Shown: positions 2,180 to 9,677 of the stretch, in pieces | Position numbering within the stretch: position 1 is the first letter of the stretch | How the letters are laid out: each line of letters starts with the position of its first letter | Origin: Gammaproteobacteria bacterium | GTDB lineage: Bacteria; Pseudomonadota; Gammaproteobacteria; Acidiferrobacterales; SZUA-150 | Assembly: GCA_029880755.1 (NCBI GenBank) | Contig: JAOUNW010000003.1 | Span: forward strand, 1-44,780 | Direction of reading: 5' to 3' | Length of the DNA stretch: 44,780 nucleotides | Made by a program: the position numbers and the translations under genes | Notes under the pieces: model-generated | What the model was told of the DNA's origin: nothing | Database searches by the model: none | Seen by the model: the letters and a program-made list of their open reading frames with translations, nothing else

Positions 2180-2815
2180 ATGAATGCCGAAAAAAGAAGA
2201 AAACTGTTTGAGCGCCTGCAAGGCATGGATCCGCATCCAACGACAGAACTCAAATACAGAACCCATTTTGAATTACTGGTGGCCGTGATCCTTTCGGCGC
2301 AAGCAACAGACAAGGGAGTCAACAAGGCCACCGAAAAATTATTCCCGGTGGCCAACACACCCCAGGCCATCCTGGATCTGGGTTTAACCAAGTTTAAACG
2401 CTACGTCAAAACCATCGGTCTCTACAATACAAAAGCAGCCAATATCATGAAGACCTGTAAAATACTCGTGGAGAAACATCACGGCAAAGTTCCACGCACC
2501 CGGGAAGAACTGGAGGCCCTGCCCGGTGTCGGTCGTAAAACGGCCAATGTGATTCTTAATATTGCCTACGGCGAACCGACTATTGCTGTGGATACGCATA
2601 TTTTTCGCGTTGCCAACCGCACCGGCCTGGCGCCGGGGAAAAATGTGCTGGAAGTGGAAAAAAACCTGATGAAAGCCGTGCCGAAAGACTTCAGGCAACA
2701 TGCCCACCACTGGCTAATATTACACGGTCGTTATACGTGTATTGCCAGAAAACCCCGATGCGGCAGTTGTGTGATCTATAATTTATGCGAGTATCAGGAT
2801 AAAGTAGAGCCATGA
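2180..2815 (+). CDS. nth: Endonuclease III
   Basis: LLVAVILSAQATD, HhH motif LPGVGRKTANV, AVDTHIFRV, C-x6-C-x2-C-x5-C Fe-S motif. Confidence 0.98.
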   Translation: MNAEKRRKLFERLQGMDPHPTTELKYRTHFELLVAVILSAQATDKGVNKATEKLFPVANTPQAILDLGLTKFKRYVKTIGLYNTKAANIMKTCKILVEKHHGKVPRTREELEALPGVGRKTANVILNIAYGEPTIAVDTHIFRVANRTGLAPGKNVLEVEKNLMKAVPKDFRQHAHHWLILHGRYTCIARKPRCGSCVIYNLCEYQDKVEP

Positions 2816-3912
2816 GCACCATGGATGTTTGCACTGGCCTGAGCCACGGCAACAAAGCTTATCCGGAGCACGCGGCCAAGGCAGTAAAAAAAGCGCTTGA
2901 TCGCGCCGGCCTGTCACAGGCCAATGGTGTCTTGTTATTCCTCACCCCTGAATACGCCTCCGATCCCATTCCGGCATTACGCGCCGCGGCAAAAGCGGCC
3001 GGTTGTCTGCAAATTATCGGTTGTACGGGTGCCGGTCTGCTCACAGAAGAAGAGTGGGTACTGGATAGCCCGGGCGCGGCGGCCATGGTTTTTGGCAACC
3101 ACATCCATTTAGACATCCCTTCTACCCGGTTAACGAACGAAGAACTGCGACTGAGTTTTTGCACACCGGCAGGTATGACAGCGGATTGGCTGGACACACC
3201 CGCCCCCCGCCTGGGCGCGGTCTCGGGCGACGTTTTCGGCCAGGGGCCTTTCGTGGTCTGGAGTGGAGGACGAATTAATGATGGCCAGCACGTGGATACC
3301 GTCGTCAAAGGCGCCACCGGCGTGTTACTGGCTTCGCAGGGTGTGCATGCCTTGACCTCGCCCATCGAGGTAGCAGAAGTGGAAGGTTACGATGTCAGAC
3401 GCCTGGGCAACTACCCGGCGCTCAATGTGTTGGTACAATCTCTGCCGGAGCAGGTACGGGAAATGAAACGTCTGCCCTTCCATTTAATTATGGGTGGCGT
3501 CACCATCGGTGACCCGGCAACGGCGATTCGTGACGGTCGCTATCGGCTTAACCATATTATTTCTGCTAATCTCACGGACCAGTCCATTACGTTGTCTCAT
3601 CCACTCCATCCCGGTGAGCGCCTGTTCTGGGCCATGCGTGACGCCCTGACCGCCGAGCAAGCCATGCAGACATCCATCAAACAGGCGGAACAGCAATTAG
3701 GAACCCGGCCGGATTTTGGTTTTTTGTTTCCCTGCATGGGGCGGGGCCCGCATTTCTACGGTAATCGGGACCGGGACCTGGAGGTCATGAAATCCCGTTT
3801 TCCTGGCATGCCTATTATCGGGTTTTACGGCAATGGTGAGATCGGCCCGTTGGATGGCGCCAATCACTTGTACCAATATTCCGCGGTAGCAGGGCTTTTC
3901 AAGGCAAATTGA
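2812..3912 (+). CDS. FIST-domain (FIST_N/FIST_C) signal-transduction protein
   Basis: IIGCTGAG, C-terminal FPCMGRG and GFYGNGEIGP motifs; ATGA overlap with nth stop. Confidence 0.85.
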   Translation: MSTMDVCTGLSHGNKAYPEHAAKAVKKALDRAGLSQANGVLLFLTPEYASDPIPALRAAAKAAGCLQIIGCTGAGLLTEEEWVLDSPGAAAMVFGNHIHLDIPSTRLTNEELRLSFCTPAGMTADWLDTPAPRLGAVSGDVFGQGPFVVWSGGRINDGQHVDTVVKGATGVLLASQGVHALTSPIEVAEVEGYDVRRLGNYPALNVLVQSLPEQVREMKRLPFHLIMGGVTIGDPATAIRDGRYRLNHIISANLTDQSITLSHPLHPGERLFWAMRDALTAEQAMQTSIKQAEQQLGTRPDFGFLFPCMGRGPHFYGNRDRDLEVMKSRFPGMPIIGFYGNGEIGPLDGANHLYQYSAVAGLFKAN

Positions 3913-3954: not shown

Positions 3955-3981
3955 GAACTTACCCGTCATCGCCAGGTCTCA
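3955..3981 (+). promoter_or_regulatory. Candidate ECF (RpoE/AlgU-like) promoter for the RiPP operon
   Basis: GAACTT-N16-TCTCA about 115 bp upstream of the precursor ATG; resembles the GAACTT-N16-TCTnA consensus. Confidence 0.4.
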
Positions 3982-4095: not shown

Positions 4096-4446
4096 ATGGC
4101 AAGTAAGAACAAAATGACCCCCCTGGCCGCCGCTATCGGCGTTTCCATTGCAGCTAGTCTGGCTACCCTGCCCCTGGCCGGTGCAGCAGAAAATCCATTC
4201 GCCATGAAAGACATTGGCAGTGGCTATAAGGTGGCTGAAGAAGGCAAGTGCGGTGGCAAGAAAGACGCCAAAGAAGGCGAATGCGGTGGCAAGAAGGAAG
4301 AAGCCAAGAAAGAAGGCAAGTGCGGTGGCAAGAAAGAAGAGGCCAAAGGCAAGAAGGAAGGCCAATGCGGTGAAGGCAAGTGCGGCGCCGACAAGAAGCA
4401 TGACGAAAAGGAAAAGAAAGAAGGTAACTGCGGCGGCAAGAAGTAA
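4096..4446 (+). CDS. Secreted MNIO RiPP precursor, HvfA/oxazolin (bufferin-related) family, six EGxCG repeats
   Basis: Signal peptide ending AGA-A, ENPF motif, Lys/Glu/Gly-rich core with EGKCG, EGECG, EGKCG, EGQCG, EGKCG, EGNCG; GGAG RBS; directly upstream of DUF692. Confidence 0.9.
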   Translation: MASKNKMTPLAAAIGVSIAASLATLPLAGAAENPFAMKDIGSGYKVAEEGKCGGKKDAKEGECGGKKEEAKKEGKCGGKKEEAKGKKEGQCGEGKCGADKKHDEKEKKEGNCGGKK

Positions 4447-4457
4447 GTCGTTAGTCA

Positions 4458-5318
4458 ATGGACACCAAAACTTATCCCGTTCATGGTGCCGGACTCGGTT
4501 TAAAGCGGGCCCTCATGGGCCCGCTGGCTGAGGCCTCTCCGACACAAATCAATTTTCTGGAAGTGGCTCCGGAGAACTGGATTGGTGTTGGCGGAAAATA
4601 TGGAAAACAATTTCATCGTTTCACGGAACGCTACCCGTTCCTGGCCCACGGACTTTCATTATCTATCGGCGGACCCGATAAACTGGACACCGCTTTTGTC
4701 CGAGATGTAAAAAACTTTCTCGACCAGTTTAATATCCGTTGTTACAGCGAACACCTGAGTTATTGCAGTGACGGCGGACACCTTTACGATCTTATGCCTA
4801 TCCCTTTTACCGAAGAAGCGGTTCACTATGTAGTAACTCGCATCCGGGAGGTGCAGGATATTCTAGAGCGGCGCATTGCCATGGAAAACATCTCCTACTA
4901 TGCCGCGCCTGGACAGGAAATGTCCGAAATCGATTTTATTAATGCCGTACTCAAAGAAGCCGACTGTGATTTGCTGCTGGATGTGAACAACATTTACGTT
5001 AACAGCATTAATCACGGCTATGACGCTGAAGAATTTCTCAAGGCATTGCCCGCCGAGCGGGTCGCCTATTTCCATATTGCGGGCCATTACAAGGAAGCGG
5101 AAGATTTGCTGGTGGATACCCATGGCGCGCCTGTGATCGACACGGTCTGGGATCTGCTGGACAAAGCCTATGAACATGTCGGAGTTGTGCCGACCCTGCT
5201 GGAACGCGATTTTAATATTCCGCCGTTGCAGGAATTATTAACGGAAATGGACCGCATTATTGAAATACAAAACAACTGGAGTCTGCGCAGTGAACCCTCT
5301 GCAGTCAAAACCCGCTAA
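4458..5318 (+). CDS. Multinuclear non-heme iron oxidative enzyme (MNIO, DUF692; HvfB/BufB family)
   Basis: [48 protein letters not shown] motifs. Confidence 0.95.
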
Positions 5319-6072
5319 CCAACCTGAATTTATTCGCAGACAACTGGAGTTTGCCGCCAATATCCGCCACCCGGATAATGCCGCACCTGCTGATATCGAG
5401 GATCGGCGCATGGCTGTCTATCGCGAGCTGTTTTACAACAATGTCGAGGATTTCATGGCCGGCAGTTACCCGGTAATCCGGGAGTTAATGGACGATGAAA
5501 GTTGGCATGCCATGATCCGGGATTATTATTCACGCCACAAAGCGAAAACGCCGCTGTTTCCGACGATGCCGGCGGAATTCCTGGATTACCTGCAGAACGA
5601 AAGAAACTCGGAAAATGATCCGCCATTTCTGATAGAACTGGCACATTACGAATGGATAGAGCTGGCCCTCGCTGTGTCGGATGAATCCATTGATATGCAG
5701 ACGATTGATCCCAATGCCAGCCTGCTAGAGGCGAGTCCGGTTATCTCACCTGTTGCGCTATCCTTAAGCTACGCGTTTCCGGTGCATAAAATTTCCCCCG
5801 ACTTCAAACCCACGCACCCGGACAACACACCAACTTTTTTGGTGGTGTACCGAAATCGGCAGGACCACGTAAAATTCCTGGAGATTAACGCAGTAACGTT
5901 CCGTTTGTTACAGCTTATCTCCGATAATCCAGTGCTGACAGGCAACGAAGTTCTTAATCATGTTGCATCGGAGCTGCCCGGACTGGACCGGGACGTGGTA
6001 CTAAAGAATGGCCAGCGGGCACTGGAAGATCTCAAATCATTCGGCATTATTTTGGGGGCCCGAAAAACCTAA
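5290..6072 (+). CDS. DUF2063 MNIO partner protein (HvfC/BufC family)
   Basis: [37 protein letters not shown] motifs; GTG at 5290 preceded by GGAG and overlapping the MNIO 3' end. Confidence 0.9.
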
Positions 6073-6161
6073 TCTGTCATGAGGGGCGAGAACCACAGCC
6101 CCCTCACTCTTCAGGCAAATCAGCATCACCAACTCAAAGCTGATTCATTTCAGGAGAATAC

Positions 6162-6632
6162 ATGGAAACCATCAATCACTATTATTTTATGGCAACAGAC
6201 AAGCTGAATTGGCTTGGTCAATATGTCGCCGGCCTGGTGTTACGTCTGCTATTGGCCTGGGAGTTTTGGGAAGCGGGTATTGAGAAATTCCGGGGCGAAA
6301 ACTGGTTTGCCGATATTCAGGGCAATTTTCCTTTTCCATTCAGCGTTATTCCTGCAGACATCAGCTGGTTCCTGGCAACCTGGACCGAGATTCTGGGTGC
6401 AGTGGGACTGGTTCTGGGACTAGCGACACGCTTCTGGAGTGCCGGTCTCATCATTCTTACTGTTGTTGCCTGGTCCAGCGTCCATGCCGGGAACGGTTAC
6501 AATGTGTGTGACAATGGATTCAAATTGCCCCTGATGTATCTTATTATGTTCATTCCTTTGTTAACCCAAGGGGCCGGTAAAGCGAGTCTGGACCACTGGA
6601 TTTCACACTACATAACCAAAAAACCCGCTTGA
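6162..6632 (+). CDS. DoxX-family membrane protein (HvfX-like)
   Basis: LRLLLAWEFWEAGIEK, ATWTE, LGLATR, GYNVCDNGFKLPL, GAGKASLD; AGGAG RBS. Confidence 0.9.
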   Translation: METINHYYFMATDKLNWLGQYVAGLVLRLLLAWEFWEAGIEKFRGENWFADIQGNFPFPFSVIPADISWFLATWTEILGAVGLVLGLATRFWSAGLIILTVVAWSSVHAGNGYNVCDNGFKLPLMYLIMFIPLLTQGAGKASLDHWISHYITKKPA

Positions 6633-6657
6633 GTACATTAGCCGGCCCAGGACAATT

Positions 6658-7656
6658 ATGACTGATCTTGCTATACACCGCTTTCCACCCGACACGATTC
6701 CTGCATTTAATGAGTCATTGCATAATGCCGGTTGGTCGCCATTGCGCCGCGCACCGTTGACCGAACTTCAAGTCAATGTAGGCAAACTATGTAACCAGGC
6801 ATGCAATCATTGCCATGTGGATGCCGGGCCCAAGCGCACGGAAATAATGGCCTGGGAAACCATGACGCGCATTCTGCATTGGCGCCGGGAGTCCGGCCTG
6901 ACCAAAGTTGATATAACCGGCGGTGCTCCGGAATTAAACCCCCACTTTCGCCGATTTGTTGACTCATTGGTTAACGATGGTGTGCAGGTAACATGCCGGT
7001 GCAATCTTACAGTCTTACTTGAAACGGGACAGGAGGATCTGGCCCAGTGGTATGCCAATCGCGGCATTCGTTTGGTGTGTTCCCTGCCTTGCTACAATCA
7101 AGATAATGTTGATGCGCAACGCGGTAGAGGCGTTTTTCTCAAGAGCATTGAGGCACTAAAACTACTGAACAAGGAAGGTTACGGAAAACGGGAAACATTA
7201 ACATTGGATCTTGTTTATAATCCTAATGGCGCCTTTCTGCCGCCCGAACAAAGTAAACTGGAACTGGATTACAAAAAGAATCTGTTTGAGCAATATGGCA
7301 TTGAGTTTACGCGCCTGCTGACATTATCCAATCTCCCAATCAGCCGTTTTCAGCACTATCTGGAAAGGACCGGAAAAGAATGGGAATACTGGAATTTATT
7401 ATACGAGAAATTCAATCCAGGCACGCTGGAGGGCTTAATGTGTCGACACCTGATCAGTGTCGATTGGCAAGGCAAAGTGTACGACTGCGACTTTAATCAA
7501 ATGCTCGAACTGCCATTAGCCAGTTCCGGCCACACCTATCTTTGGCAAATTAACAGCCGGAATTTAACCAACAGCCCTATCGCTGTGGGCAGTCATTGTT
7601 ACGGTTGTACTGCCGGCGCGGGTAGCAGTTGCGGCGGGGCACTAACCGATTTGTAG
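6658..7656 (+). CDS. arsS: ArsS-family radical SAM protein (TIGR04167-type, Cys-rich C-terminus)
   Basis: LQVNVGKLCNQACNHCHVDAGP (CxxxCxxC), DITGGAPELNP, YDCDFNQML, HCYGCTAGAGSSCGGAL. Confidence 0.9.
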   Translation: MTDLAIHRFPPDTIPAFNESLHNAGWSPLRRAPLTELQVNVGKLCNQACNHCHVDAGPKRTEIMAWETMTRILHWRRESGLTKVDITGGAPELNPHFRRFVDSLVNDGVQVTCRCNLTVLLETGQEDLAQWYANRGIRLVCSLPCYNQDNVDAQRGRGVFLKSIEALKLLNKEGYGKRETLTLDLVYNPNGAFLPPEQSKLELDYKKNLFEQYGIEFTRLLTLSNLPISRFQHYLERTGKEWEYWNLLYEKFNPGTLEGLMCRHLISVDWQGKVYDCDFNQMLELPLASSGHTYLWQINSRNLTNSPIAVGSHCYGCTAGAGSSCGGALTDL

Positions 7657-7666
7657 CCCGCATTAT

Positions 7667-8299
7667 TCAGTCAGCAACAAACTGCTTCAGAGGTTCATAC
7701 ACCTGAGACACGAGCCATAAATCATCCCAGGTATCAATATCTTTCAACATTGGTAACAACTCAAACGTTATGCTCGCCTGACTGGCTTTATCCATCGTGG
7801 ATTTCAAAACCGAGGCTGTGCCCCACGCGATGTCCTTGAACAAAGACTGCTCCATGACGGCAAGACCAATGAGATAGTAGCCGCCGTCATCGGTGGGGCC
7901 GATAACGCTTTCGTCGTCTGCCAGGAAGTCATACGCTTTCTCTATTACCTCCCCGGGACAGTGGGGTATATCGATACCCATAATGGCAGCGGCGCCCTTT
8001 CGATTAATGTGGTACTCCATGGCACTGGCCATTTTCTGGCCCAGGTCACCTGAACCCTGGTCCTTTAGTACAATGTGTAACTCCTGCGCCAGAGACTGAA
8101 ACACGGGATGATTGCTATCCGGCGAACCATAAAGAAAAACATCGCCGGGCCAGTTTTCCACGGCATTTTGGCAACTCGTTCGTATCAAAAATTCGGAAAT
8201 CTCCGCCGCCTTTTCCGGACCGCACACGGACTGCAAACGCGTCTTACTCTGTCCCGGAATGGGGTGCCGGGCAAATAGCAGCAGATCTGGATTTTTCAC
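7667..8299 (-). CDS. TIGR04282/DUF2064-family transferase (radical SAM/arsenosugar-associated)
   Basis: FARHPIPGQSKTRL, QGSGDLGQKM, IGPTDDGGYYLIG, DIDTWDDL. Confidence 0.88.
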   Translation of the reverse strand: MKNPDLLLFARHPIPGQSKTRLQSVCGPEKAAEISEFLIRTSCQNAVENWPGDVFLYGSPDSNHPVFQSLAQELHIVLKDQGSGDLGQKMASAMEYHINRKGAAAIMGIDIPHCPGEVIEKAYDFLADDESVIGPTDDGGYYLIGLAVMEQSLFKDIAWGTASVLKSTMDKASQASITFELLPMLKDIDTWDDLWLVSQVYEPLKQFVAD

Positions 8300-8300
8300 A

Positions 8301-9044
8301 TTAACGGACCGCGTTATAAAATATGATTAACTTCCCCGGGGAAACACCGGCCCAAAACAGCAGCCGTAATACCCACATAGTCAGTATAGTCACTAAAATG
8401 CCGTTTTGTTGCCAGCGGCGGGCTGATGTGATGGCTTTTTGGGAAATCATGGCCGGTTGGCCAATCTCCTTGAGTCGTTTTGACAGGACGATGTCTTCCA
8501 TCAGTGGTATGTCGGGATAACCTCCCACTACCTCGAAGGCATCACGGCGAACAAATAGCGCCTGATCACCTGTAACAATCCCTGTGATTCGGGAGCGTAG
8601 ATTCATGGCTGCTTCAATGAGCCGATACCAGACTCCCGGATGATCCAGCCGGACATCAAACCGACCCCAGACATCACCCCTGCGCAGACATCGCTGCACC
8701 GTTAAAATTGCGTCTTCAGGTAACCGGGTATCCGCATGCAGGAATAACAACGCATCGCTGGCAGCCATTCGAGCCCCGGCATTCATTTGACAGGCCCGGC
8801 CTGTTGCGCACTGGAGCAGCCGAACATGGCTGCCCTTCGCGATCGCCACCCTGACTAACTCACACGTGGCATCCCGACTACCGCCGTCCACCACAATCAG
8901 CTCCTTGTACTGACTAGAGCTTAAATGCGCCAGCAATGCCTCGATGGTTTTTTCTTCATTCAAAACAGGAACAATAACGGCGACACTGGGTTCCCTGATA
9001 CGCATTGCCCTCGACATCAAGCGATCAGGATTTACCGCTGTCAC
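8301..9044 (-). CDS. TIGR04283-family GT2 glycosyltransferase (radical SAM/arsenosugar-associated); start codon uncertain
   Basis: VPVLNE, VVDGGSRD, GRACQMNAGA, FLHADT, GDQALF, PLMED, TSARRW. Confidence 0.9.
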   Translation of the reverse strand: MTAVNPDRLMSRAMRIREPSVAVIVPVLNEEKTIEALLAHLSSSQYKELIVVDGGSRDATCELVRVAIAKGSHVRLLQCATGRACQMNAGARMAASDALLFLHADTRLPEDAILTVQRCLRRGDVWGRFDVRLDHPGVWYRLIEAAMNLRSRITGIVTGDQALFVRRDAFEVVGGYPDIPLMEDIVLSKRLKEIGQPAMISQKAITSARRWQQNGILVTILTMWVLRLLFWAGVSPGKLIIFYNAVR

Positions 9045-9279
9045 CCGGACTGTTACCCAACATACTTTGTCGAGCCAGTTTCACTATGAGAATCAGGCAG
9101 GCCGAGCCGTGCAGGAAAAGATCGAATATATCGATTGGACGGGAAAGAGAACCGTGCACCAACATTTTTATTTTTTCCCACACATGCGGTTCCGGTGACA
9201 ACGGCGCCAATGACAGAAATGCTGTTACTATAACGGTGGGCAGAAAAGGCAACTTGTCAATCCATCTTATTACTTTCAT
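9025..9279 (-). CDS. Small membrane protein of unknown function
   Basis: Two hydrophobic segments flanking [13 protein letters not shown]...[11 protein letters not shown]; start overlaps gloA stop (ATGA). Confidence 0.7.
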
Positions 9280-9677
9280 TTCCCGCTATCTCTGCTGGAT
9301 GCCTGAATCAGTTCAATCTTGTAACCGTCTGGATCTTCAACGAAGGCTATCACTGTCGTACCGTGCTTCATCGGGCCAGCCTCCCTGACCACATTACCAC
9401 CTCGTTCGCGTATCCGATCACAAGCTGCGTAAGCATCCTCGACTTCAATGGCAATATGACCAAAACCCTTACCGATATCATACTTGTCCGTATCCCAGTT
9501 GTAGGTGAGCTCAATCACCGCCTCGCGGGATTCTGGGCCATAACCGACGAATGCCAACGTGAATTGGCCATCCGGATATTCCTTACGGCGCAATAACTGC
9601 ATCCCAAGGACTTCGGAATAAAACGCAATGGATTTGTCCAGGTTTCCTACCCGTAACATGGTATGTAGTATTCGCAC
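9276..9677 (-). CDS. gloA: Lactoylglutathione lyase (glyoxalase I)
   Basis: [51 protein letters not shown]. Confidence 0.96.

Follow-up and report, generated by a model that had tools for sequence, protein, structure and literature searches.

The described systems closest to the locus reported here are of two kinds. The first is the hvfXABC operon of nontypeable Haemophilus influenzae, also named oxazolin or 'Buf_EGKCG' operon, whose genes and chemistry have been described (PMC11252979). The modification of the cysteine (Cys) residues of its precursor peptide HvfA was given as oxazolone/thioamide in the 2024 paper, as it is in NCBIfam, and has been reassigned to 5-thiooxazole (bioRxiv 10.64898/2026.07.17.739211). 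The EGKCG clusters contain DoxX, DUF2063 and a few redox genes according to a paper on the MNIO landscape (PMC12452194). The second is the ArsS/ArsM arsenosugar system, in which ArsS adenosylates DMAs(III) to DDMAA (PMC13598754). Here, we analysed a stretch of 44,780 nucleotides from an Acidiferrobacterales gammaproteobacterium (contig JAOUNW010000003.1; hereafter, the window) that carries an MNIO copper-peptide operon of the Hvf type followed directly by an arsS gene encoding a radical SAM enzyme.

Both halves of this locus belong to known families, so that most of it is ordinary; what is new is how they are laid out, with an ArsS gene closing an MNIO copper-peptide operon. Full-text literature searches, which covered main texts, retrieved no publication on such an operon. 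In the main text of PMC12452194, neither 'arsen' nor 'DUF3641' occurs, and 'radical SAM' is confined to the references. An initial annotation of the window had proposed either a combined metal/metalloid stress locus with a single promoter, or an action of ArsS and its partner transferases on something other than arsenic, possibly the peptide. The reading that we favour, to which we give a slightly better than even chance, is that two self-sufficient modules stand back to back in a conserved rnfB-nth-FIST ... gloA-argG slot and that their link is co-expression and not shared chemistry.

Gene content and organization of the locus

Gene identities were established from the list of open reading frames (ORFs), NCBIfam profiles with curated cut-offs and a Pfam scan (Table 1). 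The ORFs, spacing and gene calls of the initial annotation were borne out: all NCBIfam scores lie above their cut-offs and Pfam agrees. The hvfA, hvfB, hvfC and hvfX genes (4096-6632, + strand) are co-directional, neighbouring genes being separated by, or overlapping by, no more than 90 bp, and represent the same four families as the H. influenzae operon, all above the NCBIfam cut-offs. The MNIO is of the HvfB type, being above the HvfB cut-off and below the BufB cut-off (276.7 vs 310 bits). The listed start of hvfC is a TTG within hvfB and the NF050145 match begins only at residue 28; judging from the profile, the true start is probably later.

Table 1. Features of the locus in the window and the evidence on which each rests
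Feature	Coordinates	Strand	Evidence or remark
FIST N+C domain protein, directly 5' of hvfA	2812-3912	+	Pfam scan
Candidate sigma-E-like promoter motif, 5' of hvfA	3955-3981	+	Motif match; count at chance level
hvfA, 116-amino-acid (aa) Cys-repeat precursor	4096-4446	+	NF050137 20.8 bits, cut-off 19.5 (marginal)
hvfB, MNIO (DUF692) maturase	4458-5318	+	NF003818 452.2 bits, cut-off 360; PF05114 360.6 bits
hvfC, DUF2063 partner	5260-6072 (as listed)	+	NF050145 301 bits, cut-off 142; PF09836 and PF22106
hvfX, DoxX-family membrane protein	6162-6632	+	NF050144 149.7 bits, cut-off 80; PF07681
hvfX-arsS spacer, 25 bp	6633-6657	+	AGGA ribosome-binding site; no hairpin
arsS, radical SAM	6658-7656	+	TIGR04167 431.8 bits, cut-off 300; PF04055 and PF12345 (DUF3641)
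TIGR04282 (DUF2064) transferase	7667-8299	-	175.8 bits, cut-off 134; PF09837
TIGR04283 family-2 glycosyltransferase	8301-9044	-	263.5 bits, cut-off 182; PF00535
84-aa small hydrophobic ORF	9025-9279	-	No Pfam or NCBIfam match
gloA (glyoxalase I)	9276-9677	-	TIGR00068 177.6 bits, cut-off 120

The translated HvfA has six Cys, all in a G-x-C-G context, as does the H. influenzae HvfA (PMC11252979), and sequence comparison finds the same architecture in the HvfA of eight relatives. Unlike in H. influenzae, the repeats are spaced by Lys/Glu-rich linkers, the DoxX gene is the last of the operon instead of the first (PMC11252979) and arsS follows after 25 bp. The N-terminus of HvfA is hydrophobic and ends in A-G-A, so that, by eye, it could be a putative Sec signal peptide. 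The azole-based copper ligands that the initial annotation attributed to such clusters are in agreement with the newest, 5-thiooxazole assignment (bioRxiv 10.64898/2026.07.17.739211). Public contigs break in the hvfA repeats (4256-4442), and one contig of an independent sediment sequencing run (X2) joins 4256 to 4364, omitting 107 nt; the number of repeats may vary among strains or the repeats may be mis-assembled.

The second half of the locus consists of TIGR04167 (arsS), TIGR04282 and TIGR04283 genes located within 1.7 kb of one another. The transferase genes are convergent to arsS, 10 bp (TIGR04282) and 645 bp (TIGR04283) from its stop codon. ArsS matches TIGR04167 end to end (model positions 2-303 of 303). 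Its C45/C49/C52 (CX3CX2C), C262, C277, C314, C317 and C325 are invariant in our ArsS alignment (A1), and its C-terminal Cys-rich DUF3641 (PF12345, 182 bits) is of the Cys form, not the selenocysteine form. Of the families of the ArsS/ArsM arsenosugar system, TIGR04167, TIGR04282 and TIGR04283 are found above cut-off in the window and ArsM elsewhere in the genome. Unlike in the described system, arsM is unlinked, the transferase genes are inverted behind gloA and arsS is appended to an operon for a ribosomally synthesized and post-translationally modified peptide (RiPP). In many other ArsS loci, arsS, TIGR04283 and TIGR04282 are co-directional and contiguous.

The initial annotation stated that the window lacks arsM, and the sole match to NF008823 in the window indeed reaches only 52.8 bits vs a cut-off of 263. 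It had also proposed a search of the rest of the genome and had named an arsM elsewhere, with normal arsenosugar production, among the points that would tell against its own proposals. The genome of the window (71% complete, 255 contigs) does carry an unlinked arsM, a 273-aa ORF on contig C30 (G000:C30:7609-8403; NF008823 372.6 bits, cut-off 263). An unlinked arsM above the cut-off is also present in 5/5 relatives checked (G001, G003, G004, G005, G010), four from the family of the window and one from a sister family. Two further ArsM-family methyltransferases are encoded in the genome (contigs C169 and C119; L002, L003), at about 195 bits and therefore below the 263 cut-off, which makes three members in total. 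NF008823 misses some of the ArsM diversity, since the ArsM-like gene of the ArsS cluster of one relative (G009, see below) scores 196 bits vs 263. The C169 and C119 genes are only 31-33% identical to this G009 gene and were ruled out as its orthologues.

These gene identities are compatible with the following model. Module 1, hvfABCX, would make a Sec-exported peptide, the iron enzyme HvfB and its partner HvfC converting the six Cys of HvfA into copper-binding heterocycles. Module 2 would be the usual ArsS set, in which ArsS, TIGR04283 and TIGR04282 would work with the unlinked arsenite methyltransferase, with ArsS adenosylating dimethylarsenite and the transferases taking part in later steps of an arsenosugar-type pathway. 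The arsS gene would be transcribed from the hvf promoter, the transferase genes would ride behind gloA and the two modules would be joined by a shared metal(loid) or envelope-stress response. The co-transcription, the arsenic substrate and the stress signal are what we infer here.

Synteny and independent gain and loss of the modules

The neighbourhood survey across taxa that the initial annotation had proposed was run on 40 relatives, on 80 ArsS loci and on a sample of 400 genomes of the class. Of the 40 relatives, 25 carry ArsS and 25 an MNIO (E <= 1e-20). In regions taken from the relatives and mapped by tblastn, an order-wide backbone emerges, rnfB-nth-FIST-[hvfABC-doxX] ... gloA-(GGDEF/EAL)-argG, in which the two modules are present in various combinations. 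All the same-family relatives that have both genes (4/4; G001, G003, G004, G005) show FIST-hvfABC-glutamate-synthase-domain gene-doxX-arsS, then the convergent TIGR04282/TIGR04283/small ORF/gloA. The insert between their hvfC and arsS comprises a 510-533-aa glutamate-synthase-domain gene and a 200-aa DoxX gene (L036 6957-9276; L039 4995-7266).

Two relatives (G020, G031) retain hvfABCX together with gloA, and neither genome yielded an ArsS. Two others (G009, G025) carry hvfABCX behind FIST and have their ArsS cluster on another contig. Conversely, among the nearest ArsS relatives of the window, three metagenome-assembled genomes labelled Muproteobacteria, Sulfuricaulis and Pseudomonadota (L047, L048, L049) show FIST-DUF1841-DoxX-arsS with no MNIO, and in L050, L127 and L128 arsS lies behind FIST or DUF1841 with no DoxX. 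Overall, the slot was seen with both modules, with Hvf only, with ArsS only, with Buf and ArsS, and with DoxX and ArsS. Hence, each of the two modules, Hvf and ArsS, comes and goes in one syntenic slot irrespective of the other. The gloA gene stays put in relatives without ArsS (L044, L045); it is a backbone gene, outside both modules.

The ArsS cluster of G009 (L040 328-5279) and G025 (L042) lies on one strand in the order flavoprotein reductase-arsS-ArsM-like-TIGR04283-TIGR04282. Its reductase is a class-I flavoprotein disulfide reductase. The closest model to its ArsM-like protein (372 aa, with a Cys-rich tail) is the arsinothricin-type ArsM, at 359.9 bits, below the cut-off of 500.

Several other genes of the slot deserve mention. 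The 84-aa ORF is present in the 4/4 same-family relatives as well as in L047-L049 and L128; it accompanies TIGR04283/TIGR04282 in this clade and is not beside gloA where ArsS is absent (L044, L045). A search with it returned 117 proteins at E<=0.001, including that of the window, of 69-111 aa and with no Pfam domain. None of the named matches bears an informative name, some being called 'RND transporter', including in Roseobacteraceae and Anaerolineae. In many relatives (L047 5113-5550; L051 6797-7222; L127; L128), FIST is separated from doxX or arsS by a DUF1841 protein (186.6 bits), which is absent from the window. The FIST protein holds the post-nth position across the order and related orders, whichever module follows.

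The hvfX-arsS joint and its probable transcription

The hvfX-arsS gap of 25 bp and the 10 bp between the convergent stops were measured as claimed by the initial annotation. A 258-nt contig from run X2, which belongs to a different study than the possible source run, covers 6570-6827 with 0 differences. Therefore, the joint is real DNA, neither an assembly artefact nor a chimera. The AGGA sits 7-10 nt before the arsS ATG. The absence of a visible terminator between hvfX and arsS was also confirmed: the terminator scan lists no site on the + strand between 4581 and 9900, and the RNA from 6585 to 6700 folds no better than shuffled sequences (z = +1.05). Since the tight spacing cannot accommodate a terminator or an evident promoter before arsS, this gene is probably read through from the hvf promoter. 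Short doxX-arsS gaps, of 9-87 bp, were found in every lineage examined.

Upstream of hvfA, a sigma-E-like motif, GAACTT-N16-TCTCA, lies about 115-140 bp from the gene. It is the sole match in the 44.8-kb window to the consensus pattern GAACTT-N15-17-TCNNA; one match vs 0.81 expected by chance is not significant, and none precedes arsS. A similar motif was found upstream of hvfA in 2/8 Hvf relatives and in 0/6 Buf-type loci scanned.

The alternative that arsS has its own promoter in the 3' end of hvfX, the two chemistries being separate and the adjacency an inherited order without regulatory meaning, appears unlikely, although it is the strongest of the competitors. A sigma-70-like match, TTCAAA-17-TATTAT (9/12; 6519-6547), does lie about 110 bp upstream of the arsS start codon. 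However, promoter-like matches are no commoner in the region than in shuffled sequences (10 vs 7.6 +/- 2.6). The whole slot, including the unrelated nth, FIST, gloA and argG, is syntenic, so that gene order needs no function to be conserved; against this, the short doxX-arsS gaps persist in all lineages examined and, in the class sample, MNIO and ArsS genes lie close together about ten times as often as expected by chance (see below).

The history of hvfX also bears on this alternative. The DoxX tree contains three well-supported clades. Clade A comprises the DoxX that precede arsS in L047-L049, L051-L053 and L056, clade B the protein of the window and that of G031 (72% identical), one of the relatives in which no ArsS was found, and clade C the 200-aa form of the family of the window and of family f5. 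The HvfB of the window is 71-79% identical to those of same-family relatives, whereas its HvfX is only 24-31% identical to their DoxX. The operon of the window is thus a mosaic, in which an hvfX from the DoxX clade of another family replaces the glutamate-synthase-domain gene and the 200-aa DoxX gene of the relatives. Because its hvfX differs in clade from those of same-family relatives, the hvfX-arsS joint of the window is evolutionarily recent, a point in favour of an adjacency without regulatory meaning.

Frequency of the MNIO-ArsS pairing

A scan of species genomes from many phyla returned 80 ArsS loci, whose flanks were inspected. The neighbours of ArsS were TIGR04283 (40/80), TIGR04282 (34/80), a flavoprotein reductase (22/80), ArsM (17/80) and an MNIO (4/80; L051, L052, L053, L056, labelled Arenicellales or Gammaproteobacteria). 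The co-occurrence of TIGR04282 and TIGR04283 with ArsS mentioned in the initial annotation is therefore common. In L051, a BufA2-like precursor, BufB (385.1 bits, cut-off 310), a DUF2063 protein and DoxX are encoded before arsS, the last gap being 12 bp.

Of the 400 genomes of the class sample, 189 carry ArsS, 132 carry HvfB at E <= 1e-95 and 183 carry BufB at E <= 1e-90. These totals include four genomes flagged unpublished (G079, G180, G334, G346), none of which is an adjacency case. ArsS is found in 47% of all genomes (189/400), in 49% of the BufB carriers (90/183) and in 58% of the HvfB carriers (77/132): co-occurrence of Hvf or Buf with ArsS at the genome level is close to random. Among the 77 genomes with both HvfB and ArsS, which include that of the window, a comparison by hand found no pair less than 28 kb apart on one contig in the other 76; most pairs are on different contigs, and contig breaks in fragmented assemblies could hide some. 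Adjacency of Hvf and ArsS was found only in the family of the window. The initial annotation had considered that an adjacency restricted to this lineage would tell against its proposals; the restriction holds for the Hvf type and does not hold for the bufferin type, whose pairings occur elsewhere.

Bufferin operons (Buf1/Buf2; bufABC-doxX) have the same operon logic and DoxX tail as the operon of the window, and arsS directly follows in L051, G358, G192 and G215. They differ in the class of precursor, BufA2 or DUF2282 vs the EGKCG type of the window. Two members of one genus (G358, G192) show nth-FIST-bufA2-bufB-bufC-doxX-arsS. In G215, bufA2BC-doxX-arsS is located away from the nth-FIST backbone; its congener G376 has the same pieces over two contigs, which looks like a pair split by a contig break. 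In G041, two unrelated genes separate arsS from a Buf1 cluster that includes DoxX and a VTT-reductase fusion. In G309, bufC-bufB-reductase is divergent from arsS-arsM. In the G041 region (L133 4447-9264), the Buf1 (DUF2282) cluster precedes a 713-aa fusion of VTT/DedA and pyridine nucleotide-disulfide reductase, then an extracytoplasmic function (ECF) sigma factor.

Several points weigh against our reading of two modules linked by co-expression. BufB and ArsS lie within 5 kb of each other in 5 of the 90 genomes that have both (G215, G358, G192, G041, G309) vs about 0.4 expected by chance, according to our own arithmetic, which takes a genome to be about 3 Mb long and to hold about 1.4 BufB copies. 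These pairs span at least four gene orders and two ArsS clades, and two MNIO types occupy the same place before arsS (Hvf here; Buf2 in L051 and G358). Together, the proximity excess, the several orders and the two MNIO types give a hint of selection for the pairing. Furthermore, no arsM is adjacent to arsS in any examined locus of the ArsS clade of the window, an arsenic substrate is presumed for this clade on account of the name of the family, and TIGR04168 (metallophosphoesterase) and TIGR04169 were not found in the genome of the window, at its 71% completeness.

Only the proximity excess is left partly unexplained by a mere neighbourhood of modules. It points to selection for co-expression in response to metal(loid) or redox stress or, with lower likelihood, to a functional connection by way of DoxX or the reductase. 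Since bufferin-ArsS pairs exceed chance in several gene orders and ArsS clades, co-regulation of MNIO-DoxX operons and ArsS under metal(loid) stress is plausible. The combined metal/metalloid locus of the initial annotation, possibly with one promoter, fits the tight spacing, the ribosome-binding site, the lack of a hairpin and the recurrence of MNIO-DoxX-ArsS in other gammaproteobacterial families; the interpretation of that annotation is supported in part.

DoxX, or in other lineages the flavoprotein disulfide reductase, might instead serve both the MNIO peptide system and ArsS, with a coupling through DoxX or redox supply, the pairing being selected without ArsS touching the peptide, a functional coupling that we consider distinctly improbable. 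In an ArsS tree of 109 rows, all 16 distinct rows in which a DoxX gene immediately precedes arsS group in a single clade (26 rows, support 100), whose other 10 rows lack DoxX. DoxX clade A precedes arsS in 7/7 loci sampled, three of them without MNIO, Buf clusters adjoin the ArsS-associated reductase in G041, G309 and G215/G376, and the function of HvfX is unknown according to PMC11252979. However, the DoxX sample is centred on ArsS and is thus biased, DoxX precedes ArsS in only 7/80 ArsS loci, all from near relatives, and L050, L127 and L128 of the same clade have arsS without DoxX. Moreover, that three DoxX clades precede arsS fits accident better than a specific partnership. In the FastTree phylogeny of ArsS, G358 and G192 join the backbone clade, and G215/G376, G041 and G309 take three separate places in the other clade, to which the ArsS of families f5 and f7 also belong and which holds the co-directional arsS-transferase clusters.

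A broader proposal is equally hard to credit: in several gammaproteobacterial lineages, ArsS genes would recur, under selection, as the last gene of MNIO-DoxX operons for copper peptides of both the Hvf and the bufferin type. They would then share one pathway with the thiooxazole peptides, ArsS alkylating a soft atom held by or part of the modified peptide, or would form with DoxX and a reductase a redox module for Cu/As detoxification.

Substrate of ArsS

The most direct form of shared chemistry would be a tailoring of the Hvf peptide by ArsS and the transferases, for instance through adenosylation and then glycosylation of the thiooxazole sulfur before export. The hvf and arsS genes are tightly spaced on one strand, all the enzymes would be cytoplasmic, the peptide would be modified before Sec export, and two MNIO operon types end in arsS in several families. 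Nevertheless, we regard this possibility as very remote. Close relatives (L047-L050, L127, L128) carry ArsS with neither a precursor nor an MNIO nearby, Hvf operons are present in genomes without detected ArsS (G020, G031), and 58 of the 189 ArsS genomes of the class sample have neither HvfB nor BufB at the thresholds used. No ArsS-specific HvfA motif was seen when five ArsS-linked loci were compared with four unlinked ones, all of which share one architecture. The transferase genes are on the opposite strand, behind gloA. As a peptide maturase, ArsS was a candidate to be rejected: models of such enzymes (mycofactocin, WgkB, AlbA, SbtM and others) give it 18-37 bits vs cut-offs of 265-850. Neither a SPASM domain nor a RiPP recognition element was encountered in ArsS, for which Pfam gives Radical_SAM and DUF3641 only. 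Shared chemistry is therefore disfavoured by the independent variation of the modules, by the usual partners with which ArsS is found elsewhere, by the unlinked arsM and by HvfA sequences that are alike in ArsS-linked and unlinked loci. On these grounds, and given the near-random co-occurrence of the two systems, the peptide-tailoring alternative of the initial annotation has no support.

The TIGR04167 family was originally described as a radical SAM/selenodomain system, and its model is named rSAM_SeCys. ArsS and the two transferases of this clade could act on another soft atom (selenium or sulfur, for example), carried by a small molecule that has nothing to do with the peptide. Only 17/80 ArsS loci have ArsM as a neighbour, none of the loci examined in the ArsS clade of the window does, and the presence of ArsS in 189/400 class genomes is wider than documented arsenosugar production. 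By contrast, an arsM above the cut-off is present in the genome of the window and in all five relatives checked, ArsS matches its equivalog model end to end at 431.8 bits, and other members of the order carry the co-directional arsS-arsM-like-TIGR04283-TIGR04282 cluster. We consider another soft atom to be a poor prospect, slightly below the coupling through DoxX.

Biological significance

Two self-sufficient modules linked by co-expression thus remain our preferred reading of the locus. If the pairing reflects co-regulation, it would link the handling of copper and arsenic in sediment sulfur-cycle bacteria. If it reflected shared chemistry, which is unlikely, it would reveal a new substrate for ArsS-family enzymes and a new tailoring step for MNIO peptides. 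Moreover, the survey warns against inferring function from conserved gene order, since the whole slot is syntenic while the modules within it come and go independently.

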